Part shown: one piece after another, positions 17,113-35,670 of the stretch | Layout of the letters: each line of letters starts with the position of its first letter | Numbering within the stretch: the stretch's first letter is position 1 | Assembly: GCA_002269645.1 (NCBI GenBank) | Contig: NIVC01002529.1 | Coordinates: forward strand, 1-64,000 | DNA length: 64,000 bases | Source: Macrostomum lignano | Lineage: Eukaryota | Direction of reading: 5' to 3' | Position numbers and translations under genes: made by a program | The notes under the pieces: generated by a model | Database searches by the model: none | What the model saw: only the letters and a program-made list of their open reading frames with translations | What the model was told of the DNA's origin: nothing

Positions 17113-17163
17113 ATTAAATAGGTCACTAAAATACACCAGTTTTATCGGCTCCCTCGCCAGGTC

Positions 17164-17327
17164 AGTAGTAATAGAAAATTACGTCCATACCCCATTTTTC
17201 AATTGCAAAACACGTAATAAGGTACCCGTCAGAAATTTTATTACGCACATACCCTATTTTTCTATTAAAAATCAAGTAGTAAGGTACCGAACCAAAAAGT
17301 AGGGTATTCTACAGGAATTTCAACTAC
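17164..17327 (+). repeat. Left terminal inverted repeat (164 bp)
   Basis: Exact reverse complement of 35773-35936 by manual comparison. Confidence 0.95.
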
Positions 17328-17982
17328 TCTGCCTGCACCCACAAAGCACAAAAGAAAGAACCGCAATAAATTGCGGGTGTCAAATTTTGCAGTCAACTTT
17401 ATGCCCCCTCAAGCGACCCAAACGCAGTTCAGAGCAGCGCACACACAGCAAATAAAGGCAGTTCTGCGCTACACTCACCCCACAACACAGTCTACTCTAC
17501 CCCCAAACAGCGAAACTACACAATCCACGACACCACCCACAAAGAACGGTGGAAGAACGGATCTTAATTTTCATCAACGGACTTTGCTCGTCAGTCAACC
17601 GTTGTATATCCCCAAACCGTTACTGAGGATCAACCCGATATTATTCCCCCTTTTGAAATCATGGAATAATCTCCCCCGTCCCAGAAAATGAATTGAACGA
17701 AAAAGTTTAGTCGTGTATTCTACAAGAATTTCAACTAAACTGCACAGTTCCCACAAAGAATTGAAAAGAAGAAAAGATCTCATGCCCGATCAACCGACAC
17801 ACTTGATCAAGAACGCACTTTCAGTATATTTCCAAGGCAAGCGAATCAAAATATTAGCCGACTCTTCGTCCACAGCGCCCCCTAACCCGCCGACTACTCA
17901 CCCAAACTGTAACCTAATGCCTACCAGGAAGATTCACCACAAAGAAATAGTCTTTACCAACTAAAGGTAATTTTACAAGAGT

Positions 17983-18528
17983 TCAAGGATCTCGGCGACG
18001 CACCCGCGGCGGAGCGCGCATGTAAATCATCTTGAAACGATTCTCAGTGTCGTCCACCCGGAAGTAAGCCACACTACTAATGGTCACGGAGCCGTCGGAC
18101 TCCAAGCGGCGGCAGTAGCCAGCACCGTTTAAAGAAGTGCAGCGGCGGTCGTTGGAAGGCAGTCCCCACACCGTCCCCCCGTTTGCGGGTACCCCCGTTC
18201 CGTGTGGTTCGCGCAGATTAATCCGCTCCGCAGCACACGCCGTCCGGATGTCATCAATCCGCTCGTTCGTCATCTGCTGCCGCGGCGAATAAGCTGTAAC
18301 CACGCATACGGCCCTGGCCACGGTGTCAAGCACACGCGTTACTGGAAGCCCAGCCTGCTGGCCATCCAGGCGCATGCGCTGGATCTGCGCGCGAAGTGCA
18401 GCAACCGAGGGGTTTTGACACCACTCGTACCGTATGTACCGCACCAATGTGACGAAAATCGCCCTGCGGGACGAGCAGGGTGGAGCCTCACTCGGGTTCG
18501 GCTCACGACCCTCGTTAGATTCCGCCAT
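17983..18528 (-). CDS. Polinton hypothetical protein (~181 aa from MAESNEG), transcribed toward the left TIR
   Basis: Long non-repetitive ORF with ATG at 18528; no recognisable motif. Confidence 0.55.
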   Translation of the reverse strand: MAESNEGREPNPSEAPPCSSRRAIFVTLVRYIRYEWCQNPSVAALRAQIQRMRLDGQQAGLPVTRVLDTVARAVCVVTAYSPRQQMTNERIDDIRTACAAERINLREPHGTGVPANGGTVWGLPSNDRRCTSLNGAGYCRRLESDGSVTISSVAYFRVDDTENRFKMIYMRAPPRVRRRDP

Positions 18529-19167: not shown

Positions 19168-19175
19168 TATAAAAG
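19168..19175 (+). promoter_or_regulatory. Canonical TATA box (TATAAAAG) upstream of the 19270 gene
   Basis: Consensus match ~100 nt before the ATG, in the divergent intergenic region 18530-19269. Confidence 0.45.
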
Positions 19176-19269: not shown

Positions 19270-20423
19270 ATGACTGCCTATCCCGCCGAAGCAGTCCTGA
19301 CGCTGCGCCAACTCACTGACGGAGCAAGACTACACATTGGCGACGAGTCAACAAACGGCGAGTGCTTCTTCCGATCTGTGACGTGGACTCGGCCGGGGGA
19401 GAAGAAACGCTACCCACTCATACTGCAGACGGAGACCCCGCTGGAGCTGTTGAAAGGGATCAACGAGCGAGGAAACCACCACGCTGAACAATCGACCACG
19501 TATCAGGCCGACCATCGCGAGGAAATCGGACTGAATTTTCTCGGCGAAAATTTCTGCAAGCCACTGTTCAATCTACTGAGGTGAGTTACCCCCCGACTCA
19601 GGATTCACTAGCCCCCTTGGTGTCAGCGAAAACCAACACATAAACTCCTATTCAATTCCAGAACTGTGGAACGAACAATCGCACTGGAACTCGAGGAGAA
19701 GCCGGACTCTAAAGCGCTGCTGCGCGTGACGCGACAACCCTCACGCGGTACAACGGACGGGGCCTCCGCGGACTACGCCCCGATGCACTGGATTCCAATC
19801 AAGCCAAACTTCAGCTGTCTCGGCTTTCGCACAGACCAGGCCACCCACCCGGACGGTCGAGAGGCAGCCCTGAGCGAATTCAAAGGACTGACGGGACGCT
19901 ATCAATTCAAGTCACGTCGCTATTCTGTCCACGGACCGGAACCGGGTGGAGGCTCTCTTTCGCTCTACGCTCTATTGTGCTGATCGAGAGCAACCCAAAC
20001 CGGCTGGCCCTCTTCGCGGGAGTCCGACGACAGCTAGCCAAGAAGAGGGAGCCCGATACAGACGAGAAACCAGAAGCCAGCTCGTCAATGGAGAAGAAGC
20101 CCTCCAAGCGGCGCCAGTCCAGTCCTGAAGAGGAAGCCGAACCTAGCACAAAGAAGAAGCAACCGAGCAAGAAGCCAGCGGCCCCTCGCCGTCCTACTGC
20201 GCCCAAGAAACCGAAGCCGCCTGCAGCTACACAGAGCAACGACCGGCTGGCCCCGACTGCCGAAGGTCCGCCCCCGGCCAAGGCACTGGTGAGCCCTACC
20301 GGGTCAACTATCTCAACGTCAACTGGCGGAACTCGGGTGGCCTCTAAAGACCTTGCCTATCAACGTCACCTGGCGGCGGCCGCGGAGCAGTCCACGTCCA
20401 GCGACTCTGAAGCTGAATCCTAA
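19270..20423 (+). CDS. Spliced Polinton gene, putative OB-fold ssDNA-binding protein with a basic then acidic tail; one frameshift near 19960
   Basis: Exon 19270-19580 |gtgagt...ttccag| exon from 19662 joins in frame (AG|A); one missing base would join the 19977-20423 ORF (~357 aa total). The SSB call is pattern-based inference (LILQTETP..GI, F..L..VE..I, terminal beta-rich segment). Confidence 0.5.
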
Positions 20424-20607
20424 ATCTGATATTCAAATTTTTAAACGACGGTTGTGGATAAGAAATACATTGGCCACCCAGGTTCCGCCAGGAACATTTC
20501 TATATTGTGGGTGAAATCTATTGAGCCTTTGTTTTTTCTTCTTTCAGCGCTTGGTGCTACTCATTTTTGGTGCCGCACTGAAAACCTCTCCTGGAGAAAA
20601 GCTTTGC

Positions 20608-21100
20608 ATGCACGAGACTGAGATAGCTTTAGCTCTAAAGTCATATTCGTGCAAGGTTTTTAAAGCGAGACCTACAATGTGCAAATTTAAATTTGCGGAT
20701 TCAACTATTCAGCTTTATCCCAACGGGAAGCTGACAATTTTTTGTCGCAATATGAATGTGGACGTGGGATCGATTTTACAGTTTGTTAACGAAATTACTA
20801 TTTACAAACTGGATTTCGATTCTGTCCACGTTCAAACTTCTACACTGGTTGGTCAAGTTCAGTTTCCCGGAAGAAACAGCTTCCACTATTTAAAAAGCTG
20901 TATCGGAAACTATGAGGACTTTAGGGCAACCTATGATGCAGAAGTTTTTCCGCAGGCAATCAGTTTAAGACAGTCAAAAACTCCCAGACTTTTTTGCAAC
21001 GTCTTTCATACTGGAAAGATTGTCGCAATGGGAGCAAAAAACGTGACCGAAGTAAACCTGTTAACTCGGTCCGTTAATGCATTGCTTGCTATGCTACTAA
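20608..21100 (+). CDS. Divergent TATA-binding protein (TBP)-like protein; as assembled the frame stays open from 20521 to 21597
   Basis: Two TBP repeats: TEIALALK...TIQLYPNGKLTIFC and VQTSTLVGQVQFP...ATYDAEVFPQAISLR..PRLFCNVFHTGKIVAMGAK, versus canonical SYEPELFPGLIYRM..PKIVLLIFVSGKVVLTGAK. Confidence 0.85.
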
Positions 21101-21130
21101 AAGCAGCACAATTGGCGAAAAATTCCAGCC

Positions 21131-21802
21131 ATGACCCGGATCTACATTCTAGAGGGGAACCTGGCGGCAGGCAAAACAACGCTGCTGAGAAACCTGGCCC
21201 TGAACTCGCGGTTGGAGAAATGGGAACCGCAGATTCTCTGGGCCAAGGAGCCGGTTCAGGCCTTCACCTCCCATCCGAAGCTGCCGGCAGAGACAAACCC
21301 GCTGGAGGAGTTCTACCGAGGATCTCTATCAGCACTCGGTTTTCAAGTCCATGCGAGCCATTGCCTGCTCCAGCGGGACAAGAACATGAGAGAGCTTCTG
21401 CTCTCACCGGAGCCGGATCAACCAGAGTACGACATTCTGGTGATGGAAAGGGTCATGGCGTCGGCTCACGCATTCAACTCGGTTCTGGCAGAGGCGGGGC
21501 GGCTAACAACGCTGGAGAAGGCGATCTGCTGCGCACAGGTGGAGACATTGCAGGCGATCAAACCAAGCGAGGCCACCCTGATCTACCTCGACATTGATCC
21601 AAGCCTGGCTCTGGAGCGGATCCGGCAACGCGGCCGAACAGGAGAATCCGAAGTGACGCTCGACTATCTGAACCGGCTGCACGAAGCAATGGTGTCCAAC
21701 TTCTCTCTCTATCGGGCGGTCCACCGAGTGACGGTCGGACCATCTACAACACCAAGCGACGTGGCTCGACTGGTTGGGCGCATTGTGCGAGGACTAAACT
21801 AA
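21131..21802 (+). CDS. Deoxynucleoside kinase (dNK/dCK/dGK family)
   Basis: LEGNLAAGKTT P-loop, EPV, LEEFY..FQ, MER motif, LIYL..P..ALERIRQRGR.GE lid and LDYL..LHE; gccATG start. Confidence 0.92.
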   Translation: MTRIYILEGNLAAGKTTLLRNLALNSRLEKWEPQILWAKEPVQAFTSHPKLPAETNPLEEFYRGSLSALGFQVHASHCLLQRDKNMRELLLSPEPDQPEYDILVMERVMASAHAFNSVLAEAGRLTTLEKAICCAQVETLQAIKPSEATLIYLDIDPSLALERIRQRGRTGESEVTLDYLNRLHEAMVSNFSLYRAVHRVTVGPSTTPSDVARLVGRIVRGLN

Positions 21803-21836
21803 CTAATCCAAATCCGAATCAAATATATTTAAAACA

Positions 21837-22787
21837 CAGCTTTTGCTGTAAAACTCTTTCCGATCGAGGAAAGAGCCTGAGATGCATACAATCTCGTGAA
21901 TTATTTCTATGTCTTTTGACGTAGGCGAGAGACCAAAACAATACAGTCAGCTAAAGTTAATCATGTCGCTCTCTATTATTAGACATGCCCTCGCGTTTGG
22001 GTTCGCGAGTGTTTCCGCCGATTGCTATTGGAAACAACGTCCCCTTGCTGACAAGCTGGCCAGCTTTTGCTGTAAAAATCTTTCCGATCGAGGAAAGAGC
22101 CTGAGATGCATACAATCTCGTGAATTATTTCTATGTCTTTTGACGTAGACGAGAGACCAAAACAATTACAGTCAGCTAAAGTTAATCATGTCGCTCTCTA
22201 TTATTAGACATGCCCTCGCGTTTGGTTTCGCGAGTGTTTCCGCCGAATACTATTGGAAACAACGTCCCCCTGCTGATGGCAAAAAGCATTCTTCAACACG
22301 ATTAATTCTATTGGCTGTTGTTGATGCTGCTATTTACTTGCCCGCTAGCAGACGGTTTGGTTTTTGTCTCTATGTCGCCAATAATTTGAGGCCGTGCCCA
22401 CCCCGGTGTCTGGTGTAAACTGACGACTGGGTTTTTTCGACCATTGGCAAGTAGCTCCTTGAGGTTGCATAGTGTGGATTTTTCTTTCCACAGCTGGGTG
22501 TCTAGGCCGACTCTGGGTCATAGCACCATTCAGGTCCACCTGGCCCAGTGCCTTAAATGCAGCCAGACCAGTAAAGGAGCGCCAGGTACTGACCCAATAT
22601 TCGAGGTCTGCATTCAGACCCAATATTTCGAGGACTGCGCTTGCATCCATTGGTTGAATTACGGTGTGCATAGGATCAAAACAAACCCAATGCCAACGGA
22701 GCAAGTGGATTATTGCTGGAAAGCGAGGACTCTCGCTTGGAGATGCACCACCACCACCACCACCACCACCACCACCACCACCTATTT

Positions 22788-22822
<35 letters not shown>

Positions 22823-23000
22823 CGTGTTGGCACCCCAGAAATATTTTGGTGGGTGCGGTGCGGATAAAAAAATGAGGGATAAAAAAAAGTCAGCTAAAGT
22901 TAATCGTGTCATCACCCTCTAAAATTATTGAAGACACGCCCTCGTGTTTGGGGTTCACGAGTACTGCTACTACTATTTGTAGTAACGTCCCCCTGCTGAC
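21837..23000. repeat. Intergenic structured repeats: two 224-bp copies (21837, 22061) and a third diverged core copy (22889-23000)
   Basis: Direct repeats containing several stem-loops with compensatory changes; could be a ncRNA or cis element. Confidence 0.85.
22345..22671 (-). CDS. Possible small hypothetical protein (~108 aa from MHTVIQ)
   Basis: Non-repetitive part of the 22345-22833 ORF; the upstream part is microsatellite. No motif recognised. Confidence 0.3.
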   Translation of the reverse strand: MHTVIQPMDASAVLEILGLNADLEYWVSTWRSFTGLAAFKALGQVDLNGAMTQSRPRHPAVERKIHTMQPQGATCQWSKKPSRQFTPDTGVGTASNYWRHRDKNQTVC

Positions 23001-23089
23001 AAAAAAACGTTGTTTTTTAGTCTTTTTTTATTACTACGCTACTGCCTACACCGTTGGCTAATAAATAAAAATTATTTTCTTAATTCCAG

Positions 23090-23807
23090 CCATTGATACG
23101 GTGTGTTGTGTGCAAGCGCGTGTTTCGTTCGCGCGCCGAGTTGCACATTCACACGCATCAATTCTGTTTCGTTCCTGAACAACTACTGGATGGGCCGATT
23201 CGGGAACTGACTGCCAACAATCCTCCTGATGGGTGGAGTGTTGAACTGCGCGAATCAGCTCACCGAGGACTGGTCAACTATTTGGTGTTTATACCCGACC
23301 AGCAGGAGGGTGATGACGCGGAGCGTCTGTTGCCGCCCGGTAGCTTGTTGGCTAAATTGCGCGACTCGATTTACCGCCTATTCACGCAGCTGGGTTCACC
23401 CTCGTTACTACTGCGAACTTGTATGCACCTAAAAGTGAGAATGGCTAGGCCGAGAACCACGGCCACCACCGCTGAGGAAGAAGTGATTTCTGCATACTTC
23501 AACACCAACGTTGCCACAATACGCTTTGACAACCACAACAACAACAGCGAGCCACAGCAAACGTGGCTCTTATCGCGCGATGCCTACAATGATTGGTTTG
23601 AATTGGTTTTAAACGAACTGGTGAGCAAGGTGGACAACTTTACAGCTCGTGGATCGAATTGGCAATTTGATGGAGTTGAACAACTTGACTTGATGCTTTG
23701 TATCTACCGAAAAAGCACAATTCGTGGAGCAGCAGCAGCAGCAGCCCACGACACCAGCGACCAGACGGCAGAGCCGTCTGGTCACAGGCGTCGCACCCCC
23801 ACCCTCC

Positions 23808-23841
<34 letters not shown>

Positions 23842-26800
23842 GCGTGCATTTAAAGTGCCAATATCGCTCGGACGGAAACGAAATGCTGTCATCTATTTGA
23901 AACCACACAACTCCACTCAAACCGACTGTTTTCGGTATGCTGTACTGGCAAGCATTTTCCACGAAAAGGTTGCTGCCAAGCCGACCAGCAAGAAAAGCTA
24001 CGCTCCATGGTTGAAGAGGATTCGTTTCAGCGGCGGCGGCGGCGGCCCAGCGCGTCATGCAACTCCCTCATACAGGAAATTCTGTCGTCGAAATCCGCAT
24101 ATTGGTCTACGAATATTTGTGTGGGATCACGACAGCAAGACTGCTGTTTTATATTTTTCGTTGCGTGCCACGGATGAAAAGTATTTGGCTAATTGCTTGT
24201 TCATTCCTCCGTACGGTGAGTTCAAGTTGGGACATTATATGCCGATAAAAAATCTCAATTCGTTGTTGAGCAGCAACAATAAGCGCCGAAGATACTGCCC
24301 CGAATGTTTGGTTGGGTTCAGCCACACAGTCTCTTGGAATTTTATTTTGAACCAACACAACTGCGGGGGAGGAACCTTGGACAAACCGACCACGCAATGG
24401 GCAAGTTCAGCGAGTTGTTGTCCCCGTCGTCGTCATCCTGAAATTCGTGTGGCTCGATCCGCGCCAACAGAGCTGCTACCAAAACCTTCGGAAGCTATTC
24501 TTGAGTTCACTGCACATGAAGCTCGACTGCCTCCATTATACGTGGTCTATGCCGACATTGAGAGCATTCTTGCTCCACCCGAAACTCTACAGTCGGGACC
24601 GCGAATAGGCGCCAGTTCAAATATGCGCATTCTAGACATTCATGTGCCCGTGTGCGTTGCCTACCGACTTGTGGTGTGTCCGGAGCTAAACAAATTGTCA
24701 GCCGCGCGTTTGCAGGCCAAAGTTGGCCAACAGCCATGCAAAGTCATCTACAATATGCCAGACGGGGGTCCAAATTGCATTCGCCAGTTTTTACAAGCTG
24801 TTCGTCAACTTGCCTTTGAAATTTGTAGTGACACTACAAATTCTGCGACGTTTACACCTCTGCTGCGCAAGTATGCCTGCAGTAGGCAGCAGCAGCAGTC
24901 GGCGGAGCATTGTCAGCTTTGTGGTCGAGCGTTTGGAGAAGACGACCGCCAGGTTTTGGATCATTGTCATTTGACTGGTATGCCTCGAGGAATCGTTTGT
25001 GTCTCCTGCAATCGGAAACTGTCTCTCAAACGTTATCGTCTACTTGTCTACACTCACTGTCTGAGCAACTATGATGGCAAATTCTTTGTGAGAGAATTGT
25101 ACGAGACATTTTCTGGAAATGATGTGCAGCTACACGTGCTTCCAGAGACAAAAGAAAAATTCAAGACATTTTCGGTAAAGTTTAAGATACCCCTTGGTGC
25201 GGGTGCGTCTCGCCAGCAGACGCGACGAGACTTTGTATGGTTCGAGGTGTGTTTTAAAGACACTTTTGCCTATCTGTCCACCAGTCTGGCTTCGCTAGCT
25301 CAACGTCTCTCGCCCGATCAGTTGGTTCACACTCGCGAGTTACTCAAATTATATCCTCGCCTGCAGCCTGCTACACTTCAACAGAAGGGAGTTTTTCCTT
25401 ACAACTTTTTGTCTAGCGAGGAGAAACTTGATTCCGTCAGGCAACTGCCGCCAAAAGAGGCTTTTTTCGATCGGTTGAGTATGCAACACTGCTCTGATCA
25501 AGACTATGCACGAGCGCAACAGAGTTGGCTAGAATTTGAATGTACCAATCTACGCCAATACACCACGGCATACCTGCAGTTGGATGTGCTGCTTTTGTTT
25601 GACGTGTTTGAGAACTTTCGAAAGACTGCAATGCAAGAGTATGGACTCGATCCGGCCAATTTTTTAGGCTCGCCCATGTACAGCATGGCTGCGTGCTTGC
25701 TTGGTATGGAAATGCCGATTCATTTGTTCACGGACCCTAAAATGTATTCGGAAGTAGAAACCTCGATTCGCGGAGGATTCAGTTTTGGAACCCGACACAT
25801 TACGACCGCAAACAATCGACTTGTGCAAGATCAGCGTCGCCGACTGGATCAGGAGGAGCCGCAGCTTTCGACGTTGCGTGATAATGCACCCGATGGTACC
25901 TATTTGGTTTACTTGGATGCCAATTCGTTGTATGCTTCTTGCATGACCGAACCTATGCCGTGTAAAGATTTTCGCTGGTTGACTCGTCAAGAGATTGCTA
26001 GTATACCTTGTGATGAAACTGGTCGACTTGAGACCCTGCATGTTAAAAGTCGAATGCTGGATTGGTTGGTCGGTTTTTGCAACGATGGGCGTGGAGCCGT
26101 TTTCAATGTCGACTTTTATTATCCTCGATTTTTGCACGACTCTACCGCTGATCTTCCACTTGCGATTGGTCACGAGATTCTGACGGAGAATCGGCTTACG
26201 CAGCAAATGAGGGACGACTGGGTTTGCTTGCAACGTCAACTAAATCCAGAGCGATATGCCAATGCTGCCTGCTACGAGGACGTGAAACCGTTCAAGAGCC
26301 CAACAAAAAAGCTTGTCGGGTCGGTAGATCACAAGCTCGGCTATGTGCTTCATCATCGAGCTTTGCGCCTCTACTTGGAGTTGGGTTTGCGAGTCACGCG
26401 AGTTCGTCGGGCCATTGCATTCACAGAGAAGCCTATTCTACGCAAGTATATTAATCATAATATTGCTCGTCGTGTGGCAGCTAAAACCGAGTTCGAGAAG
26501 GACTTTTTCAAGCTGCTAAACAATGCCCTGTTTGGAAAATTCCTTCAGCGCGTTCGAGATCGCTTGACTTATCGAATGTGCTCTTCGCCAGAAAAATTGG
26601 AGACCTATATTTCGCGAGAGGAATTCTTGGATGTGACAATCTACACAGAATCTTTGGCCGGTGTCAGTTTGTCTCCTCGGCGAGTGGTGCTCAACAAACC
26701 GATAATAATTGGTGCGTCAATTCTGGATATTGCCAAAACGATTGTATACAATTTTTATTACAATCATGTACAGGTGAGCAGTAGGGGAATTTTTGGGGGT

Positions 26801-27387
26801 TTTGGGTTTGCTCTATTCTACTGCTGCTGCTGCTGCTGCGATTTTAGGTGCACCGGTCACTTGCCCGCGCTCGCGTACTTGGCGGTGATACAGACAGCCT
26901 GATGATGGCTCTTATAATGCGGAATCCTGCTGAGACGCCTTACGAGACACTGTTCAAAGATTTGGCTGCACAAGGCCTATTGGACACTAGTAACTACCCT
27001 CCGACACACAGTCTGTACTCGCTTGCACACAAAGGAAAGTTGCTCGCATGGAAAGACGAGTTTTGCGGACGTCTTCCGTTGGAGTTGGTTTTTCTTCGGC
27101 CCAAAAACTACTCTTTTCTGCATTGCACTGCTGAGGGGACAGTTGGTCAAGTGTCTCGGTCCAAGGGAGTATGCAAGGCTGTTGCTCGGACTCTGAAGCA
27201 TACTGCTTACTTGCAAGTAATAGCCGATCGACGTTTGCACTATGTTACAATGCAAACAATTACGTCGCGCAAGCAGCTCGTGTTCTCGCTGAGTCAGCGC
27301 AAGCAAGCGCTGGGTTACTTTGACACTAAACGTGCCTGGACCAGTGATCTGGCGTCTCTACCGTTTGGTCACTGGCGACTTGACTGA
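23090..27387 (+). CDS. polB: Protein-primed family B DNA polymerase (at least 1407 aa); exons 23090-26773 and 26848-27387, probably with an unidentified 5' exon
   Basis: N-terminal C2H2 (CVVC..HIHTH), RGSNW..CFRYAVLA region, ExoI YADIE, EndoVII-like CQLC..DHCHLTG..CVSCN, ExoII HCLSNYD, ExoIII YLQLD, motif A YLDANSLY, motif B KLLNNALFGK; motif C GGDTDS lies after a 74-nt phase-0 GT-AG intron. Confidence 0.97.
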
Positions 27388-27583
27388 TGTTTGGTTTTAT
27401 TAATTATTCTCTGACTAGTGTGGAATTTGTTTTTTGAACAATATATGTGATGTTTAGTTGGTAATATCAGAAGTGTTATTGTTGTAAATTTCGCTATTTT
27501 TAAAAAAAAAATAAGAATCCTATATCGGGTGTAATAAGCAAACTAAGAAGATTAGAGCCATAGTTAGTTACGAGCGTGGAGAA

Positions 27584-28264
27584 ATGAAGAAGCCCTACAA
27601 GTTAAAGCCGTTAGTTTTTGTGGATATAGAAGAAGAAGACGAGGGTTATATGCCACCCCCACAGACACCCCAGCCAACAAGTAGAAAATTCATTTTTCCT
27701 CATTCTTCGCAACTTTCAGCCACCACAGCAACTACAATGGAATCAATGCAACAGAGAGCTACTGGTCAGACAACTAATAATGCCAAACAATCGACCTCGC
27801 CGAAACGTCTGCCTGCGCTATTGCAAGTGAAGCGGCTGCGGGAGTATGCTGTACTTCCTCTGCGCCAGACCAGAGGTTCGGTAGGCTATGATTTGTCTGC
27901 TGTCGAGAGCAGACTTCTTCCTGCCCACGACCGAGTAGTGCTACCGCTCGGGATCTCTATCCGGGTTCCGGAGGGCACCTACGGGCGCATTGCGCCCCGT
28001 TCTAGTCTGGCAGTGCGAGGTATCGACGTTGGAGGAGGCGTCGTTGACCCAGACTATGACGGAGAAGTTGCTGTGGTTCTTTACAACCACAGCCTCGATG
28101 ACTACACAATTCAAGCGGGAGAACGGATCGCACAGCTGATCTTGGAGCAGGCGCTAATGGTTCCTGTCGTGGTGGAGGAGACTCCCGGACAAGAGTGCTG
28201 TTCGATTCTTGAACCCCCACCTGGAAAACGTGGAGCAATGGGATTTGGCAGCACCGGACTGTGA
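27584..28264 (+). CDS. dut: Trimeric dUTPase with a ~75-aa N-terminal extension
   Basis: All five motifs: GYDL, GRIAPRSS, GVVDPDYDGE, GERIAQL, RGAMGFGSTG. Confidence 0.96.
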   Translation: MKKPYKLKPLVFVDIEEEDEGYMPPPQTPQPTSRKFIFPHSSQLSATTATTMESMQQRATGQTTNNAKQSTSPKRLPALLQVKRLREYAVLPLRQTRGSVGYDLSAVESRLLPAHDRVVLPLGISIRVPEGTYGRIAPRSSLAVRGIDVGGGVVDPDYDGEVAVVLYNHSLDDYTIQAGERIAQLILEQALMVPVVVEETPGQECCSILEPPPGKRGAMGFGSTGL

Positions 28265-28447: not shown

Positions 28448-28903
28448 ATGCCTGGTAAAACTCTTGACAACAAGAACAAGAAGAATAGGAAACAAAATCG
28501 CGCATCCAGTCAAACTGCTTCCAAAAACCCTTGCCGCCGCCGTCGCAGCCAACCCGTGCAGTCTGTTGGAAAGCAACTAGGATTTGGAATAGTAAACTGG
28601 TTAATCAACCATTTGCCTGTTGAGGTCCACGTACCCGGCTACCGTTTCTGTGGTCCCGGAACCCGCCTACGCCAGCGTTTATCGGAGGGACAGCGCGGGG
28701 TTAATCGCCTTGATGATCTGTGTCTGATCCACGACTTGGCCTATTCGAAGCACAAGGGGGTGCAGGAACGCTTGGAGGCAGACCGGGTTCTAGAAACCGG
28801 TGCCCGTGAAATTGCACAAGATCCAAACACCCCTTTCGGTGAAAAGGTTACTGCCAAGATGGTATCGAAAATTATGTCCTTGAAACAGAAACTGAGTGCC
28901 TAA
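28448..28903 (+). CDS. Parvovirus VP1u-like phospholipase A2 domain protein (adintovirus PLA2X type) with a basic N-terminus
   Basis: HVPGYRFCGPGT Ca-loop, LDDLCLIHDLAY catalytic HDxxY, and downstream EADRVL Asp. Confidence 0.9.
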   Translation: MPGKTLDNKNKKNRKQNRASSQTASKNPCRRRRSQPVQSVGKQLGFGIVNWLINHLPVEVHVPGYRFCGPGTRLRQRLSEGQRGVNRLDDLCLIHDLAYSKHKGVQERLEADRVLETGAREIAQDPNTPFGEKVTAKMVSKIMSLKQKLSA

Positions 28904-28904
28904 A

Positions 28905-29624
28905 ATGAGTGCTGCAACGCCGGAGACATTCAACTTGCAATTGGCACACGGTTCCTCGTTCATTATTGCTGGCCCAGCGATGTCTGGCAAGACCGAGTGG
29001 ACCCTGCGACTCTTGAAGGAACGCCATGCGATGTTTGACAAGGCTCCAAAACGTCTAGTTTGGTGTCATGGGACCGATTTGTCTGCGATGGAGCAGCGAC
29101 GTATTCGAATGTTTTGGCTAGACGGAGGCGACAGTCCAATTCACTTTGTTAGAGGATTTCCAGACACGCTGGTTGGTCAACTTCAGGAGCACGATTTCGT
29201 GGTAGTGGACGATTTACAAAGCGAAGTTGCTAAATCTACAGCCTTGACTGGCATGTTCACAAAATATGCACATCATATACCCTTAACGTGCGTGTACCTT
29301 TGCCAAAATTTATTTAATCGGTCGGATCCAGAGGCGCGAACTCGGAGTCTATCAGCTAGTTATATTTGTCTCATGAGAAGTGTGCGAGACCGATCTGCCG
29401 TTCAACACTTGAGTCAGCAAATGCTCAGTCGGGGCAGTAAATTCTTGGTTCGTGCCTACGAGGACGCCACTGACAACAAACCGCATAGCTATCTGTTCAT
29501 TGATTTGCGACAGAATACACCCGACTTTTTGCGTTTTCGAACTGGAATTTTTCCGGGCGACAAGCACATTGTTTACAACAGGGCTTCGGAAATGGGTAAT
29601 GCTTTTTTACCTCTTATAAGCTAA
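28905..29624 (+). CDS. Genome-packaging ATPase (A32/FtsK-HerA-like)
   Basis: IIAGPAMSGKT Walker A, VVVDDLQ Walker B, TKYAHH...LCQNLF motif typical of Polinton ATPases. Confidence 0.95.
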   Translation: MSAATPETFNLQLAHGSSFIIAGPAMSGKTEWTLRLLKERHAMFDKAPKRLVWCHGTDLSAMEQRRIRMFWLDGGDSPIHFVRGFPDTLVGQLQEHDFVVVDDLQSEVAKSTALTGMFTKYAHHIPLTCVYLCQNLFNRSDPEARTRSLSASYICLMRSVRDRSAVQHLSQQMLSRGSKFLVRAYEDATDNKPHSYLFIDLRQNTPDFLRFRTGIFPGDKHIVYNRASEMGNAFLPLIS

Positions 29625-29662
29625 GGAGTCAACAAGAAGCGTGCTCGATTCGGATTTAGAGA

Positions 29663-30655
29663 ATGAGTTTCTACGTCTTTTTGCCCTCAAACGACAAATC
29701 TTACTCGGACAATAGTCCGAACGATTTCAGGGTACGACTTAAAGAACCTCTCGACTTGGCTCCAAATGGTATCGGATCGTACGAGGTAGCTCTGGTTGAA
29801 TTGTTATGCCAAGGTGCGGTTGTAGCAACGAGCGGTAATCGAACTCGGCGATTTGAAGTGCCCTACTTTGCGGATATTTCGCAAATTCTTAAAAGCACCT
29901 CAGACTTCTTTGGACGCGTTTGGGAGGACGTTGATTTGGAAGCTTATGTTTCGTGGAAACCAACGGACGAAAAAAGCAAGATGGTGTGGGTTCTACACAA
30001 TGCTGGAAAGAAGACTTTGTCGGTAGAACTTCCTAAGCATTTCATGCTGATGAACTATTTTGCAAAGTGGAAAAAGATTGCAAGAAAGAGTGAGCCGCAG
30101 AGCACCGACCTGGAATCTCCCGATGGTGACTACAAAGATTTTATCAAGAGCATGAGTGAGGTTGCTGAGCTCTTCCCGGAGGAGTGGTTGAGCTTTGAGT
30201 GCGTTCTTGATCCTGGGGAGAGCTTGCATCTGGTCAGTGATAAGAGCCTCTACACCGAGCGCAGTTCTTCTACTACATGGAACAGTGTGTATTCATACTG
30301 GAAAAAGAATAAGACGTGGCGTTTTCATAAGACCTACTTAGATACAAGTGGCACCAGCGCATCAATCAGTACTAAGACCGTTTACATGTACTGCTACACT
30401 GACATAGTCGAGTACCAAGCTGTGGGGAGTACTTCTGTTCCCTTGCTACGCGTTGTTGAACTTCAGCAGAGGAAAGATGGTGAGCTCGTGCGTGATAGTA
30501 GTGCTCTTCAGACACCACACTATTTGAAAACTAGTCGTCTACTTGTTTCGGAGATTAGCATCCGGCTTTGTGATCAGCGGGGGCAAGCGTTGAATTTTCG
30601 CCCTGGATCTCATGTAGTTGCTGTGTTACATTTTCGACGGCGCTCAGATTTATAA
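29663..30655 (+). CDS. Minor capsid (penton-like) protein
   Basis: N-terminal FYVFLPSN..F.V.L..P.DL...YEVAL.E and C-terminal YTDIVEYQAVG...PLLRVV...P.Y...ISIRL.DQ.G..LNF...LHFRR. Confidence 0.85.
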   Translation: MSFYVFLPSNDKSYSDNSPNDFRVRLKEPLDLAPNGIGSYEVALVELLCQGAVVATSGNRTRRFEVPYFADISQILKSTSDFFGRVWEDVDLEAYVSWKPTDEKSKMVWVLHNAGKKTLSVELPKHFMLMNYFAKWKKIARKSEPQSTDLESPDGDYKDFIKSMSEVAELFPEEWLSFECVLDPGESLHLVSDKSLYTERSSSTTWNSVYSYWKKNKTWRFHKTYLDTSGTSASISTKTVYMYCYTDIVEYQAVGSTSVPLLRVVELQQRKDGELVRDSSALQTPHYLKTSRLLVSEISIRLCDQRGQALNFRPGSHVVAVLHFRRRSDL

Positions 30656-30738
30656 GCAAACGTCGACTTCTTTTTTATTCTAACAATGTTCCGACTTGGA
30701 CAACTACAGCTGCGACTCTGTGTGTGTGTTGAGGCCCC

Positions 30739-31167
30739 ATGCAGAGAATCTCGGAAAAGGCTAAGCGGAGTGCCACTTCTCTATCCCGCTGTGCGAATAT
30801 TTTACAAATTGTTACGCGGCTTGGTAGTCAGATTCAACGAAAAAAGTTTCTGCAAACGCTCACGCCGCCCGAAGTGAGGTGTTTGGTTGAATTGCTGCTA
30901 AATATTGTCAATCGGCGTGTACCGATCTCTCCATGCGACAAAAAGCGGCTTGAGAAACACGCCAAGTATATACGCCAACTGGTGGATAAAAAAAAATCTT
31001 TAAGTAAAAAGAAGAAAATTATTGTCCAGCACGGGGGATTTCTTCCTTTCCTGGCCCCAATTATCGCCGCGCTACCGACTATAGCGACTGCATTGGGAAT
31101 TACATCTGGTGTCGCAGGAACCGCCGCTGGTACAGCAAATTTAATTCGAGCAATTCAAAGAAAATAG
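30739..31167 (+). CDS. Small basic virion core-type protein with a GGFLPFL hydrophobic C-terminus (adenovirus pX-like)
   Basis: ELLLNIV...KKRL.K....IRQL...KKKII.Q.GGFLPFLAPIIAALP pattern, seen in Polinton conserved ORFs. Confidence 0.75.
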   Translation: MQRISEKAKRSATSLSRCANILQIVTRLGSQIQRKKFLQTLTPPEVRCLVELLLNIVNRRVPISPCDKKRLEKHAKYIRQLVDKKKSLSKKKKIIVQHGGFLPFLAPIIAALPTIATALGITSGVAGTAAGTANLIRAIQRK

Positions 31168-31173
31168 TGCCTG

Positions 31174-31872
31174 ATGGACAAGCGGGGTGACCTACGACGA
31201 ATGGTTCTCTTGCCTGAAAGTGTCTACCATGTTTTATCCCAGCAGCAGCAGCAACAGCAGGAAGCGCCGCCGCCGCCACCGAGAAGGACCGAGCCACTAG
31301 ACACCCCAAACGTTGCTCTGCAAAAGGATATCGTGTCTACGCAGCTAGAAATGGACAAACTAGACGAACAGATGGCGAAAAATCCGGTTTCGTTTCCGAC
31401 AGCTCAAATGAAACGCTCTGATTTGGAAAGCAAGTTGCTAAATTCTCGGCGAATACTGCAGAATGGGCCAAGTAGCGGTCCTGTTCGAGAGGTTGGTGTT
31501 GAAGAAGCACCGAAATTTGTAAGTCGGCTTCCGAAGGCATTCAAAAGGAGATACGATGCTCTTGTAAAAACTCTTTTCGAAGAAGAGGGTAGTTCTGCGG
31601 AGGCTCTTCCATCGTCTTTATCGGCGGAGGAAGTGGAAAAGTTGCTTGAGTATGTTGTCCGAGACAGACCGCTAAAAAGACATGGTAGTTCTCCCCCTGT
31701 TGGCTTTGAATCTTTTCTGGATTTTGTGCGTAGACGTAACGTGCCTAATCGTCTTGTTGGTCAGCATGTGCGAGGACTCTTGCAGTCGTTTAAAGGGAAT
31801 GACGACGACGAGGAGGAGGGTGTAAGCAACGACGATCTGAATGCTCTGGAACAATATGAGACCCTTGATTAG
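31174..31872 (+). CDS. Polinton hypothetical protein (232 aa)
   Basis: Clean ATG-to-stop ORF packed between core genes; RMVLLP N-terminal motif and acidic C-terminus. Confidence 0.75.
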   Translation: MDKRGDLRRMVLLPESVYHVLSQQQQQQQEAPPPPPRRTEPLDTPNVALQKDIVSTQLEMDKLDEQMAKNPVSFPTAQMKRSDLESKLLNSRRILQNGPSSGPVREVGVEEAPKFVSRLPKAFKRRYDALVKTLFEEEGSSAEALPSSLSAEEVEKLLEYVVRDRPLKRHGSSPPVGFESFLDFVRRRNVPNRLVGQHVRGLLQSFKGNDDDEEEGVSNDDLNALEQYETLD

Positions 31873-31925
31873 TATAAGCTTGTCAGGATTCGTTGATTTG
31901 AAAAGTATACGTGAGCCGATAAAAA

Positions 31926-32153
31926 ATGTCGTCTGACGTTTGGCGTAGAATTCGTCTTTGCGTTTGTCGTTTTTTTGCTCGTCAACACCTATGTTGCGCT
32001 CGATTGGTGACTAGTTGCATTGAAAAGGAGGACGATCTTGCAGATCACACTGTGAACGTTCAAGCGAGTTTTAACTGCTGCAACACACAGGGCGGAGCTG
32101 TTTCTACCGATATTCATGGAGGGGCGCAAGAAGACCAACCACCCGATTCATAG
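31926..32153 (+). CDS. Possible small Cys-rich ORF (75 aa) overlapping the integrase start
   Basis: aaaATG context fills the gap between genes; no homology evidence. Confidence 0.3.
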   Translation: MSSDVWRRIRLCVCRFFARQHLCCARLVTSCIEKEDDLADHTVNVQASFNCCNTQGGAVSTDIHGGAQEDQPPDS

Positions 32154-33294
32154 TGCTGTACACGAGTTTCTTGATCGCCAGTTTTTTGACTTGGAGAATC
32201 CGTCTTCTTATTCTGGAAATAAAACGAGCTTGCTTCGGGCGGTGCGCAAGACATTCCCTCAGATTCGGTTAGGGATTGCGCGAGACATTGTGCTCGATTG
32301 GATACGGTCAACTCAGGAGCACCATCTGTTTCAAAAGGCTCGACGGAATTTCCCTACACCAAAAATTAGTGTCCCGCCTGTTGCTCGGTTTCAGTTTCAG
32401 ATCGACTTGGCAGATATGCAGCAGTATCAGGCTGAGAATCGGGGCTATCGTTTCATCATGGTTTTAATTGACTGCTTCACTAGAGTTGTTCGTCTACGCG
32501 CACTTCGCTCCAAAAAACCTACGGAAGTGAGTGGAGTTTTACGCGATATTTTCAAGAGTGGTTTCAAGCCGCTGTATTTGCAGGGCGATGCAGGAATGGA
32601 ATTTCTTGGACGTGATACTCAGAACATGCTCAAGGAAGAAGGCGTTCGCTTCTTTGTGAGTCAAAGTACGTACAAGGCAAGCATGGCGGAGCGTTTTATT
32701 CGCTCGTTGAAGGAGCGAATGGAGCGTTATTTCAGAGCAAAGAAACTGCCTCGTTGGTTTGATGTGTTGGGAAAACTGGAGACAAACTTTAACTCGAGTC
32801 CTCATCGCTCTTTGAGTGGTAGAACCCCGAGAGAGGTATCAGAAGATCCACATCTTCAAGGAATACTTTGGGACAAAATTTTTGGATTGGAACAGCAGAA
32901 GCGAAAAAAGCCGCGTTTCAGTGTTGGTAGTTGGGTTCGAATTGCGAGGCGACGAGGTGTTTTTGAGAAGGGTTTTTCGACTACTTGGAGCAACACGGTT
33001 TACCAGGTTGCACGAACAATCAACAGCAACCCTCCAATGTACGAACTGAGCGATCCGGATGCAAACTTTGAGTTATTAGAAGGTCGATTTAACGAGTCAG
33101 AACTATTGGAGGTAAACCTCCCACGGGAGGAACCTACTGTGATTGAGCGAGTGCTGGATGTTGATCGGTCTAAATACGGTAAACTGCGCTACTTAGTAGA
33201 GTGGAAAGACATGGGCGAACTCAAAAGTCAGTGGTTGCGAGAGCAGGAGCTTGATGCAAAAACTGCACGACTATTTGCTAGAACCTATAAGTAA
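32116..33294 (+). CDS. Retroviral-like (RVE, DDE) integrase with a C-terminal chromodomain
   Basis: QIDLADM (D), LQGDAGMEF (D), ASMAERFIRSLK (E); chromo-like VIERVL...YLVEWK....SQWL; consistent with the 6-bp TSD. Confidence 0.96.
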   Translation: MEGRKKTNHPIHSAVHEFLDRQFFDLENPSSYSGNKTSLLRAVRKTFPQIRLGIARDIVLDWIRSTQEHHLFQKARRNFPTPKISVPPVARFQFQIDLADMQQYQAENRGYRFIMVLIDCFTRVVRLRALRSKKPTEVSGVLRDIFKSGFKPLYLQGDAGMEFLGRDTQNMLKEEGVRFFVSQSTYKASMAERFIRSLKERMERYFRAKKLPRWFDVLGKLETNFNSSPHRSLSGRTPREVSEDPHLQGILWDKIFGLEQQKRKKPRFSVGSWVRIARRRGVFEKGFSTTWSNTVYQVARTINSNPPMYELSDPDANFELLEGRFNESELLEVNLPREEPTVIERVLDVDRSKYGKLRYLVEWKDMGELKSQWLREQELDAKTARLFARTYK

Positions 33295-33297
33295 AGG

Positions 33298-33777
33298 ATG
33301 AGGGGCGAGTGCTTCAAGTATTTCGTTACGTCGGAAATGGATCCGATTTTTGCATTCTATTCGGGTCCGCGTTCTTCTTCGATTGGAGGACGAGGTAGCG
33401 TGCATCCTGCTATACCTGTGTACGAAGGATATGGGTTTCTTTCAAATTTACATGAGAAAGTCTTGTACCCGGTACTGCGCAGTGGGGCACGGGAGTTGCT
33501 CACGAAGGGATTGGATCTCCTCGCCCCAGCGAAGAGTGGGCGCGGTCTAAAACGAGGTGGTTCGGTTGTTGAAGCTGGTGAGGATTTGTTGGTTTCTTCG
33601 GTGCCCAAGAAGCGAAGACGGGCAGTTGGGTCTATAAGCAGTCGTGGTGGTGTGCGAAGGAAGAAATCGCAGAAGAGGAAAAAGAAGACGAGTGGGAAGG
33701 TGAAACGAAAATCGCCAAAATCTCGAAAGCCCAAGAAGAGGAAGAGTAAGAAAAACATCTACAGTCTTTTTGGTTAG
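33298..33777 (+). CDS. Lys/Arg-rich putative DNA-condensing core protein
   Basis: YEGYGFLS..LYPVLRSG motif followed by a very basic tail; lies directly upstream of the major capsid gene as in other Polintons. Confidence 0.75.
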   Translation: MRGECFKYFVTSEMDPIFAFYSGPRSSSIGGRGSVHPAIPVYEGYGFLSNLHEKVLYPVLRSGARELLTKGLDLLAPAKSGRGLKRGGSVVEAGEDLLVSSVPKKRRRAVGSISSRGGVRRKKSQKRKKKTSGKVKRKSPKSRKPKKRKSKKNIYSLFG

Positions 33778-33790
33778 TCAATCGTTAATA

Positions 33791-35116
33791 ATGAATCAGC
33801 TGCTGGGACCGGATATCGCTGCGCTAAAGAGTGAATTGTCGCTTTTCGATTCGACGCCTGTTCAGTTTAGTGTGGTGGATAGTCGTTACACCACAATACA
33901 ACCGCAACATGGCATCGGTCAGGGTTCGCCAATAGAGTTTGAAATAGTGCCTGCAGGTGATTTGTATATTGACCTGCGTGAGACGGTCTTGAGTGTCAAG
34001 TTTCGGGTGAGTGATGCTGACGGAGCGGCTATTGATGCGGCGAAGAACAACGTGTGCCTCAACAATTTGGCGATTGCGAGTCTTTTCGAGGATGTGCAAT
34101 TCAATATTGGGGACACTGTGGTGGAAGGTGGAACTTTTATGTATCCGTACAAGGCAATGCTATTGACTCTGCTGGAGTATGGAAGTGTTGCACAGAAGAC
34201 TGCTTTGGCTCCTTGGGGTTTTTACAAGGACACTGCTGGACAAATGGATGGTACTACGGGAAATAGTGGACGGGTGAAGCGGAAGGCTCTGATTGCGGAC
34301 AATAAACAGTGCACTGTGTCTGGACCTCTGTTCCTCGATTTGTTTCGGCAGCCGCGGTATATGCTCTCAAAAACTCCACTACGACTCAAGTTCCTACCAG
34401 CGAAAAGTAAGTTCGTTCTGAGTGGTTCGGCAATCGGAACAGGTGTTGATTTGAAGGACTATACTATATCTATCCTTCAAGCGGAGTTGCGTGTTCGTTT
34501 TGTGGAACCGTCCCCCAGTGTACTTGGAGCGCATGCGCATGGTTTGAAAAGCCACAATGCTTTATATCCACACCGTAGCTTGAGTCTTGGCACGTTTACT
34601 ATTCCGCGCGGATCGTCCAGTCATACGCACGAGAATTTGTTCCCGAGTGGTGTGCCGAGGTTGCTTCTGGTAGCCTTTGTGAACAACAAGGCTTTCAACG
34701 GAAGTATGGATACAAATCCGTTTAATTTCGAACATGCAAATCTCAACAGCATTGGTGTGTTTGTCAACGGGGAGTCCGTCCCTTCGCGGCCTCTGCAGAC
34801 GAATTTTGGTGCAGGTGGTTGTGTGACAGAATATACCTATCTGGTGCAGCAGTTGGGGTTGTATCTGCAAGGACGCGACGTTGGCTTTACAATGGAGGAC
34901 TATGGCAGTGGGTACTCGATTTTCGCGTTTGCGTTGGGGAGCGAGCCTGGTGTTGGGCATGGTGCTCAGCTCTATAAGGAAGGCAATGTAAAGTTGGAGT
35001 TGCGCTTCGCTCAAGCAACAAGCGTTGTCTACAATGTAATATTCGGTGGTCTATTTGACAAGCAGCTGCAGATCACGGAGCTTCGCGACGTCGTGCCGGG
35101 AACAGCATGGAAGTGA
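33791..35116 (+). CDS. Major capsid protein (double jelly-roll), 441 aa
   Basis: KSELSLF..P.Q...Y..I.P......PIEF.I.....YIDL..T.L N-terminus; P.LLLVAFV.N.AFNGS...NPFNF in the second half. Confidence 0.92.
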   Translation: MNQLLGPDIAALKSELSLFDSTPVQFSVVDSRYTTIQPQHGIGQGSPIEFEIVPAGDLYIDLRETVLSVKFRVSDADGAAIDAAKNNVCLNNLAIASLFEDVQFNIGDTVVEGGTFMYPYKAMLLTLLEYGSVAQKTALAPWGFYKDTAGQMDGTTGNSGRVKRKALIADNKQCTVSGPLFLDLFRQPRYMLSKTPLRLKFLPAKSKFVLSGSAIGTGVDLKDYTISILQAELRVRFVEPSPSVLGAHAHGLKSHNALYPHRSLSLGTFTIPRGSSSHTHENLFPSGVPRLLLVAFVNNKAFNGSMDTNPFNFEHANLNSIGVFVNGESVPSRPLQTNFGAGGCVTEYTYLVQQLGLYLQGRDVGFTMEDYGSGYSIFAFALGSEPGVGHGAQLYKEGNVKLELRFAQATSVVYNVIFGGLFDKQLQITELRDVVPGTAWK

Positions 35117-35670
35117 ATCTGAACGTGTTGCAGGGTGTTAGTGACAGATTCTTGCGGTCGACTATTACCAAACTCTGCATGGGATTGTTTGGTGTTGTCT
35201 TTTTGGGTGTGTATCCTCAGGACTCGATTAGAACTCTTGGACAATTACCTTTAGATGGTAAAGACTATTTCTTTGTGGCGAATACTGACACTTCGAATCT
35301 TCCTGGTAGGCATTGGGTTGCAGTTTGGGTGGGTAGCAGGCGGGTTAGGGGGCGCCGTGGACGAAGAGTCGGGGAATATTTTGATTCGCTTGGTTTAAAT
35401 CCGCCGGAAAATATTAGACGGTGGTTGGGGCGAGAATGTGGGGATTTTCAAAATTGGTCCTACAGCCGATTTGCTATTCAGGATCCTCGGACTGGTCATT
35501 GTGGTATTTGGGTGTTGTTTTATTTGTATTTCAAACTGACTCGTGGTGGTAGCCTTCGATTCTTTTTAACGCGTATTCTTGGTTGTGGGTCTCGTCGAAG
35601 GAATGAATTTCGGCGCGCGTATTTTTGCCTACGACGCTTTGCAGCACATGTGTTGCCTCTGTTCTTGTAG
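35107..35670 (+). CDS. Adenain-like (Ulp1 clan) cysteine maturation protease
   Basis: FLGVYP.D, ANTD....PGRHWVA (His), EYFDSLG (Asp), IQ......CG (Gln/Cys). Confidence 0.93.
   Translation: MEVNLNVLQGVSDRFLRSTITKLCMGLFGVVFLGVYPQDSIRTLGQLPLDGKDYFFVANTDTSNLPGRHWVAVWVGSRRVRGRRGRRVGEYFDSLGLNPPENIRRWLGRECGDFQNWSYSRFAIQDPRTGHCGIWVLFYLYFKLTRGGSLRFFLTRILGCGSRRRNEFRRAYFCLRRFAAHVLPLFL

Follow-up and report, generated by a model that had tools for sequence, protein, structure and literature searches.

We analysed a 64,000-nucleotide stretch of the Macrostomum lignano genome (the window: contig NIVC01002529.1, positions 1 to 64,000, forward strand) that carries, at 17164-35936, a Polinton of 18,773 bp whose left arm holds predicted genes for a single-stranded DNA-binding protein (SSB), a TATA-binding protein (TBP)-like factor, a deoxynucleoside kinase (dNK), a protein-primed DNA polymerase (PolB) and a dUTPase. 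The element begins AGTAGT and ends ACTACT, within terminal inverted repeats (TIRs) of 169 nt (17164..17332 on the + strand and 35768..35936 on the - strand) that differ by one mismatch, and the 6-bp target duplication CAGGTC stands directly before the left repeat (17158-17163) and directly after the right one. In contigs C903 and C461 the matching host sequence lacks the element and has CAGGTC only once; the window Polinton is therefore a recent insertion (Cnnn labels denote contigs of this flatworm genome searched for sister copies). The AGT-type TIR ends and 6-bp duplication, together with a protein-primed PolB, an integrase, a packaging ATPase and an adenain-type protease, identify the element as a Polinton by the sequence features tested. 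A first-pass annotation had described a 19-kb element with five co-oriented genes to the left of a virion block; the length, TIRs, duplication and empty sites agree with the former, and all five genes lie on the + strand. Its names TBP, dNK, PolB and dUTPase are likewise supported by the profile, model and motif evidence below.

The five-gene block is preceded by a canonical TATAAAAG box (19168..19175, +), which lies about 100 nt upstream of the SSB ATG and is a putative early promoter. RNA-like contigs start at 19213 and 19218, downstream of this box, and other lineages have a TATA box at a similar place before SSB, the early box reading TATAAAAG or TATATAAG. Exon 1 of the putative SSB gene (19270..19580, +) is kept in five lineages (ratio of nonsynonymous to synonymous substitution, dN/dS, 0.13) and has no family match; it is followed by an 81-nt GT-AG intron in phase 2 (19581..19661, +), at whose position alignments with other lineages show a gap, and by exon 2 (19662..20423, +), which encodes a beta-rich half, a basic linker and an acidic tail. 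Exon 2 has a frame break near 19,900 in the window copy and is open in C889, C272 and C1090. The X5 and X9 contigs, which come from two studies, join 19578 to 19660 with 0 other letters and so lack the intron; an X15 contig keeps it. No run is recorded as RNA, and we treated X5 and X9 as RNA because the SSB intron is removed in their contigs. Three X5 contigs also cover the dNK span 21232-21816, again with 0 other letters. The window copy, or an identical one, is thus transcribed and spliced in the nucleus, for the SSB gene and dNK at least. We did not take the lack of X5 and X9 cover on PolB, dUTPase and most virion genes as silence, and found no PolB-intron junction among the contig pieces listed. 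The SSB protein has no match to Pfam, PHROG or PDB profiles, and its leads in the Atlas clusters score 0.82-0.89 (under 0.9), with Pox_I3 and DUF2738 on minorities of the cluster members. It has the acidic C-terminal tail of viral SSBs with an oligonucleotide-binding fold (T7 gp2.5 or poxvirus I3 type) and no profile match to them. The label SSB, which the first-pass annotation had proposed, is plausible from position, beta-rich core and acidic tail: a conserved gene with such a tail does stand at that place, but the name has no library match and the window copy is broken.

The TBP-like gene (20548..21111, +; dN/dS 0.14) begins after the acceptor ...TTCTTTCAG (20547). Its Pfam match is weak (E=8e-7), and a profile search of PDB returned 35 sequences at E<=0.001, all of them TBP or TBP-containing (best 7e-20). 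An AlphaFold2 model (predicted local distance difference test 94.6, predicted template modelling score 0.85) has the two-repeat saddle, and Foldseek with this model placed TBPs on top (TM 0.61-0.71) and down to rank 44 of the list. Of the four DNA-intercalating Phe of the TBP family, at their presumed positions, both of repeat 2 are retained, whereas repeat 1 has a Tyr and a non-aromatic residue; both central Asn are replaced. The acidic Glu of the stirrup is invariant in the TBP alignment (A2), which was otherwise too variable to provide a motif for scanning. Homologues elsewhere are free-standing proteins of 143-257 aa, with no long fusion among 17 matches, and a word-indexed search with the TBP yielded 161 candidates, none at E<=0.01. 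The TBP frame runs on to 21597 across dNK, open for 154 codons (21130-21597) and for 129 in C889, a run longer than expected under within-gene codon permutation (P=0.034 for the window, 0.001 for C889). We considered a conserved protein tail here and rejected it, as dN/dS in that frame is 1.0 and the synonymous sites of dNK are unconstrained.

Downstream, the dNK (21131..21802, +; dCK/dGK/TK2/Dm-dNK type; Pfam 9e-21) has an acceptor, TTCCAG, 2 nt before its ATG. The P-loop, EP (catalytic Glu), FQ, ER and LID arginine motifs of PF01712 are all present, the nearest solved structures are Drosophila dNK and dCK, and a word-indexed search found only the protein itself and P0020 (33%) among 1032 candidates. 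Between dNK and PolB lies a non-coding motif of about 100 nt in three copies (CAGCTAAAGTTAATC...; 21948..22990, +), which start at 21948, 22173 and 22891, with a 108-aa minus-strand open reading frame (ORF; 22345-22671) among them. Two of the three copies hold TTCGCG and TTTCCGCC, which presumably resemble E2F sites. PolB (23090..27387, +; dN/dS 0.08-0.12) begins at the acceptor ...TTAATTCCAG (23089) and has an N-terminal CxxC, an Endonuclease VII insert, Exo I-III and Pol A-C (DNA_pol_B_2, PF03175, 1e-20), with no Pfam match over 23090-24400. Its two exons flank an intron of 74 nt (26774-26847). The second exon carries motif C (GDTDS), and the motif set is complete only after removal of the intron. 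Motif C reads GGDTDS or AGDTDS in all eight copies legible in full. C889 and C272 share the intron's position and differ in its sequence and length (the C272 donor is TT), and since it is absent from four other lineages it was probably gained in this one, as judged by these alignments. The trimeric-type dUTPase (27584..28264, +; PF00692, 8e-34) has motifs 1-5, an acceptor at 27719 and an in-frame ATG at 27737; its nearest named protein among the matches listed is an M. lignano annotation (75%).

The virion and integration half (28448..35670, +) comprises a PLA2-like gene (28448), an A32-type ATPase (28905), a presumed penton (29663), a pX-like gene (30739), an ORF (31174), an rve integrase with chromodomain (32116), a basic core-like gene (33298), a presumed major capsid protein (MCP; 33791) and an adenain-type protease (35107). 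The integrase has its D, D, E motifs, an rve match at E=7e-6 (under the curated cut-off) and a chromodomain; the packaging ATPase and protease match weakly in Pfam (Pox_A32 0.006, C48 0.045), with Walker and H/C motifs present. Penton and MCP have no Pfam or PHROG match and are named by position, size and conservation (MCP dN/dS 0.03). Scans of viral contigs with host TBP, MCP, P0007 and P0009, and of metagenome contigs with MCP, gave no confirmed relative. Five TATAAG[CT] boxes, putative late promoters, stand in this half at 29615, 30651, 31873, 33286 and 33633 (span 29615..33639, +), upstream of penton, pX, integrase, core and MCP. In most lineages penton and pX each have the box some 45-55 nt ahead of them, except that in the window and C889 the distance to pX is 86-88 nt; some lineages also have it before PLA2, core, integrase or MCP. 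Sense boxes in the main virion stretch of five lineages number 5, 6, 9, 6 and 5, against shuffled means of 0.4-0.7, and none of 200 shuffles reached the observed counts; the left arms of all five have 0.

These genes belong to a larger family. A DNA search with the TBP-dNK stretch gave nine matches, and we read the surroundings of five of the eight others; the protein family searches gave 330 TBP candidates (150 scored), 48 dNK matches and 98 dUTPase matches, host genes included. In the loci read, five lineages share the order SSB-TBP-dNK-PolB-dUTPase-PLA2-ATPase-penton-pX-ORF-integrase-core-MCP-protease, with MCPs 66-80% identical. The dNK is absent from the multi-copy C593/C1136/C1383 lineage, and in the C362 lineage TBP and dNK form a single 473-aa ORF (L076:1447-2865) in which the acceptor and Met before dNK are retained; the synteny proposed as a check by the first-pass annotation thus holds for the order, with dNK lost once and fused to TBP once. 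The C362-lineage dNK has an insertion of about 40-50 codons opening with the strong donor AAA/GTAAGT (slashes mark exon borders), which by its sequence is probably a further lineage-specific intron. C593 and C1383 share a large internal PolB deletion, and C1136, of the same dNK-less lineage, has a full PolB. Three degraded copies with internal deletions (C102:686000-690200, C322:216600-220800 and C48:193000-197300) have one rearranged layout, with TBP, a partial dNK and the PolB start joined to the MCP end, and by that layout are a non-autonomous family. A second, distant Polinton group (C1113:342000-352000, C130:899000-909000 and C530:480000-490000; MCP about 28-33%; well over 100 TBP-family matches) carries another kind of TBP-like gene, one that has an ATG and faces PolB; an upstream ORF of some 300 aa (no Pfam match), which we presume to be exonuclease-like, overlaps it.

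Comparison of the window with the full-length C889 copy showed that DNA identity is 96-97% over 28574-35677 and 64-75% over the left arm, with TIRs at 75%. Since identity jumps between dUTPase and PLA2, whole left arms have been exchanged by recombination onto one virion half. The dN/dS between these copies is 0.13-0.14 for the SSB pieces, 0.14 for TBP, 0.13 for dNK, 0.08-0.12 for the PolB exons, and 0.12 for the dUTPase domain (0.23 for its whole ORF). Left-arm dS is 1.1-2.9, near saturation, so that these ratios are rough (uncorrected pN/pS has upper 95% limits of <=0.49); dS in the right half is 0.04-0.14. Read from these alignments, the left arm constitutes an old module for replication and expression that is under purifying selection and is common to the radiation of these elements in this genome.

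Two genes of the module lack a start codon where their conservation begins. All 11 copies have a phase-0 YAG with a pyrimidine tract before it, and TBP conservation starts at the very next codon; one of the 11 has an in-frame Met within 75 nt; four more acceptor contexts are of the same kind, three of them in new copies. Strand 1 of the modelled saddle (residues 2-11) falls within the 20 codons that precede the first ATG (20608), PDB TBPs align from profile position 2-5, and in the free-standing homologues P0009, P0012, P0016 and P0017 a Met of their own stands immediately ahead of strand 1. The 19 codons before the ATG have a dN/dS of 0.46, with a pN/pS interval (0.18-1.42) that reflects too few codons. 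Both the TBP acceptor (between 20547 and 20548) and that of PolB (between 23089 and 23090) precede the first ATGs, and the background chance of an equally strong acceptor within 60 nt is 0.002 at the TBP site and 0.013 at the PolB site. The PolB acceptor TTCCAG, found in five of ten copies, ends at the exact codon where C593, C1680 and C3805 have an ATG; one of the remaining copies has an in-frame acceptor 18 nt further upstream, and in another a deletion joins PolB to dNK. The window, C1090 and the C362 lineage have no in-frame ATG upstream of PolB. In contrast, the ATG is present in dNK and dUTPase, and the acceptor upstream of it, at a distance of a few to 20 nt, is often in another frame (the window dNK, and dUTPase in five of five copies with a usable match, as also before the C1680 PolB). 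An acceptor that is always in frame where the ATG is absent, and free in frame where it is present, fits a leader that terminates with AUG; out-of-frame acceptors are of no use in a fusion model.

Such leaders exist in this host. We found 61 exact matches in the genome to the 3' end of the published leader motif (reversed control, 0), and 10 of the 16 leader 3' ends read continue ATG/GTAAG, so that host leader genes ending AUG/GU are present. The other six (L138-L141, L150 and L151) do not; four of these continue AACCATCAAAAC and may have arisen as retrocopies of RNAs that carried the leader, or may form a repeat family. The leader AUG of flatworms is documented as a start codon for host genes (available text of PMC9851317), and the spacing of flatworm operons is described as having a mode near 100 nt (available text of PMC8629364). 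The distance from the SSB stop to the TBP acceptor is 124 nt in the window and 124-490 nt across lineages, and acceptors of leader type before virion genes are mostly of background strength.

The explanation we favour as a whole, at a probability of roughly 55%, is an old module expressed as a leader-resolved early operon whose TBP-like protein acts as a late factor. The left arm would form one early operon driven by the TATAAAAG box at 19168, which host spliced-leader trans-splicing would cut into single messages at the acceptor before each downstream gene, and the leader's terminal AUG would supply the missing start of TBP and, in this lineage, of PolB. From what is known of their families, dNK and dUTPase would raise dNTP supply and lower dUTP for the protein-primed polymerase. 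The TBP-like protein would bind the variant TATAAG[CT] box and recruit host TFIIB and RNA polymerase II (Pol II) to the virion genes, as herpesvirus TATT-binding factors do. The confinement of the box to the virion half suggests that the TBP drives late genes, and a late-gene switch is the likeliest role because the presumed DNA-contact residues are altered, the acidic stirrup is kept and the early box is canonical. We consider the leader-resolved operon, with the leader AUG as start, probable, and by analogy with those factors it is also rather likely that the TBP reads TATAAG[CT]. The combined proposition, that an animal DNA virus lineage has lost the start codons for its DNA polymerase and transcription factor and draws on the host's leader AUG instead, and that the TBP so made runs a private early-to-late switch on TATAAG boxes, we advance tentatively, as something short of an even chance.

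Several observations weigh against this account. Among the contig pieces listed there is no leader-to-acceptor junction, those X5 and X9 pieces lacking the TBP and PolB 5' ends; in-frame ATGs do occur upstream of the PolB CxxC, at 120 nt (C889/C272) and 57 nt (C1975); and dNK is dispensable in one abundant lineage. A start could also be supplied in cis, by a weak phase-0 donor-like site, CTG/GTGAGC, in the SSB tail (P..K.L/VS; 20286..20294, +), kept in all five lineages, or by the three codons ATG-CAT-CAR that precede the exon-1 donor in the C1680 and C362 lineages. Joined to the TBP and PolB acceptors as in adenovirus E2, either would give an SSB-TBP or SSB-PolB fusion, with the SSB and its acidic tail as the unspliced form. 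The L/VS is coded GTRAGY in seven of seven copies, in phase 0 like the TBP acceptor and 259-619 nt upstream of it. This conservation is weak evidence because about 55% of the Val codons in SSB exon 2 are GTR and the AGY serine is locked by descent. Adenovirus E2 messages share a small start exon. The available text of PMC7851563 describes E2 as DNA-binding protein, preterminal protein and polymerase in one spliced unit. Yet the 42-50 codons past the donor stay open, with an RVASKD-like motif in five of seven copies, the X5 and X9 contigs run unspliced through the donor, TBP homologues stand free at the lengths given above, and the out-of-frame acceptors before dNK and dUTPase would be left unexplained. 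We therefore regard cis-splicing as a serious but unlikely source of the start; both it and leader splicing could occur, and anything other than these two is improbable. The late-factor part of the favoured explanation faces its own difficulties: a second, 2-kb stretch of C593 has one box (54 of 200 shuffles reached that), the second TBP-bearing Polinton group lacks TATAAG[CT] in 2 of 2 elements read, the motif was picked after seeing the data, and in TBP repeat 1 one presumed intercalating Phe is lost and the other is Tyr. The degenerate DNA-binding face of repeat 1 and the lack of the box in the second group suit a rival in which the TBP represses or serves as a decoy, by titrating TFIIB, NC2 or Mot1 or by damping promoters of the host or the element's own early ones, with the box, itself little different from a canonical one, read by host TBP/TRF or a helper virus. 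Against this, all five lineages confine the box to their virion half, the early promoter has a box of the canonical kind instead, and the full saddle is kept at dN/dS 0.14; we think a decoy or repressor unlikely, at about one chance in four.

The first-pass annotation had also called the block giant-virus-like and had proposed single-gene trees as a check. In the TBP tree, the window group, five short database proteins and the TBP of the second Polinton group are parted from seven cellular rows by a branch with support 96/91, which also sets this clade apart from the host TBP and TRF2-like gene, although long branches may inflate that support. P0005, P0006 and P0010 (unrelated repeat proteins) and P0018 were left out of this tree, which has no rows from nucleocytoplasmic large DNA viruses (NCLDVs). 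The quick dUTPase tree has 47 rows, 10 from the genome and 37 of the 119 other listed matches (13 labelled plus every fourth id), and places the element dUTPases outside a branch of the host gene and the 37 database rows (SH-like approximate likelihood ratio test 91; long branches); a forced clade of element and host dUTPases was not formally rejected (approximately unbiased test, p=0.069). TBP and dUTPase thus fall apart from the host copies, as the proposed check had sought, but for dUTPase the host clade is not rejected. That p value and the absence of dNK from one of five lineages are what favours recent, patchy captures of host genes under relaxed selection, which the same annotation had named as its refutation. 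Against captures stand dN/dS of 0.08-0.15, the conserved gene order, a dUTPase 42-43% identical to the host-type gene, no tblastn match of dNK to host-type dNK loci at E<1e-4 and the TBP clade apart from host genes, and such captures are extremely improbable. The giant-virus reading holds that the block comes from, or is ancestral to, giant viruses and gives NCLDV-like autonomy in non-dividing somatic cells. The two best Atlas clusters for TBP are mixed viral and archaeal and 47-59% viral, with Nucleocytoviricota commonest, the SSB leads are chiefly Nucleocytoviricota, BFVD holds many NCLDV TBPs, and one chlorovirus dUTPase stands among 120 listed matches. Identity of the TBP model is 7-17% to giant-virus TBPs (top BFVD rows) and 13-20% to cellular ones, the nearest TBP relatives form the separate short-TBP clade, the element dUTPases do not join the chlorovirus branch, and the presence of spliceosomal introns and acceptors indicates expression by Pol II in the nucleus. 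With the TBP no closer to NCLDVs than to cellular TBPs and no tree to support it, the giant-virus label was not upheld and the reading is quite improbable; an old Polinton-resident family is simpler.

Other features lie in and around the element. A lineage-specific minus-strand ORF (17983..18528; 181 aa if started at the ATG 18528, 210 aa if started at 18615) has no Pfam or PHROG match and was matched only in C1090 and degraded relatives, and an Rfam scan over 17000-36100 gave 0 matches. The ATG of a host T-box gene, whose introns contain tandem repeats, is at 36110, 173 nt past the element's end, and the insertion may affect the T-box promoter. A Helitron-like element on the minus strand (998-6879) has a 1532-aa ORF with Helitron_like_N and DUF6570 and, judged by eye, an OTU-like start, followed by pieces of a PIF1 helicase in several frames. 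Long inverted repeats within 42100-61000 (for example 42552-42800 versus 60310-60558, 97%) surround GA-rich satellite blocks.

These results bear on the timing of Polinton genes and on whether animal Polintons have a real viral cycle. They offer three testable handles in a type of host with transgenesis: a minimal viral TBP with a matching candidate late box, a selected nucleotide-supply pair, and genes that would need a spliced-on start. If the leader does supply the start, the element would be restricted to leader-splicing hosts, the truncation of TBP and PolB by ORF callers would be explained, and the early operon would be tied to cells with active leader splicing, which is reported as enriched among stem-cell genes in such worms. 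It would also be a form of viral dependence on the host without precedent in the literature we searched (few subscription papers, no Repbase), in which we found nothing on flatworm Polintons, a Polinton dNK, late promoters of animal Polintons or viral use of a leader AUG. The word TATA is absent from 10.64898/2026.10.13.758929, PMC11161782, PMC11131425, 10.64898/2026.06.19.733378, 10.1101/2023.08.22.554363 and PMC11071296, figures not covered.

Among known systems there are precedents for the gene types themselves; the literature searched gave none for the block of five genes, the dNK within it, the late box or the missing starts. Maps of midsize eukaryotic linear DNA (MELD) viruses and adintoviruses are labelled 'TBP' in the legend of Fig. 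5, 'dUTPase' in that of Fig. 6 and 'dUTPase' and 'SSDBP' in supplement maps (parts available of PMC8502044; preprint 10.1101/697771), aviadenoviruses encode a dUTPase (PMC8961515, in part), and bidnaviruses have thymidine-kinase-like and dUTPase-like genes (PMC11071296, in part). Because midsize DNA viruses provide these precedents, the giant-virus reading adds little. Adintoviruses and Polintons, as far as the accessible portions of PMC8502044 describe them, share with the window element TIRs, a 6-bp target duplication, protein-primed PolB, an rve integrase with chromodomain, the ATPase, an adenain-type protease and PLA2-like and pX-like genes. The adintovirus combination of integrase chromodomain, PLA2-like and pX-like genes is present here, with PLA2 and pX in separate ORFs. 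The window element differs in that its five genes form one conserved early block, and the searched text of that source makes no mention of a nucleoside kinase, an element from a flatworm, a gene that is spliced, a promoter box or dependence on a leader. Adenovirus E2 also places a single-stranded DNA-binding protein and a protein-primed polymerase in one spliced unit, but is cis-spliced from viral leaders and has no TBP or dNK (available text of PMC7851563). The closest parallel for the proposed late switch is that of the beta- and gammaherpesvirus late factors, human cytomegalovirus UL87 and Kaposi's sarcoma-associated herpesvirus ORF24, on TATT promoters (PMC8360532, in part), where, as suggested here, a variant TATA box is read by a viral factor that turns on late genes through host Pol II. 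The herpesvirus proteins are large, have several domains and act in a complex, whereas the window TBP is a bare saddle of about 185 aa, putatively paired with TATAAG[CT]. Flatworm spliced-leader trans-splicing (parts available of PMC8629364, PMC12582326 and PMC9851317) shows the same acceptor directly before the coding region, operon-like spacing and in-frame leader start, but is described there for host genes, while here it is read from acceptor sequences. The TBP, dNK and dUTPase of NCLDVs have the same folds and functions, at the low TBP identity given above, and the window element depends, unlike them, on host nuclear splicing. Nematode Polintons likewise swap replication genes onto a shared virion backbone (10.1101/2023.08.22.554363, in part); in those elements the polymerase alone moves, whereas in the window element the whole left arm moves.

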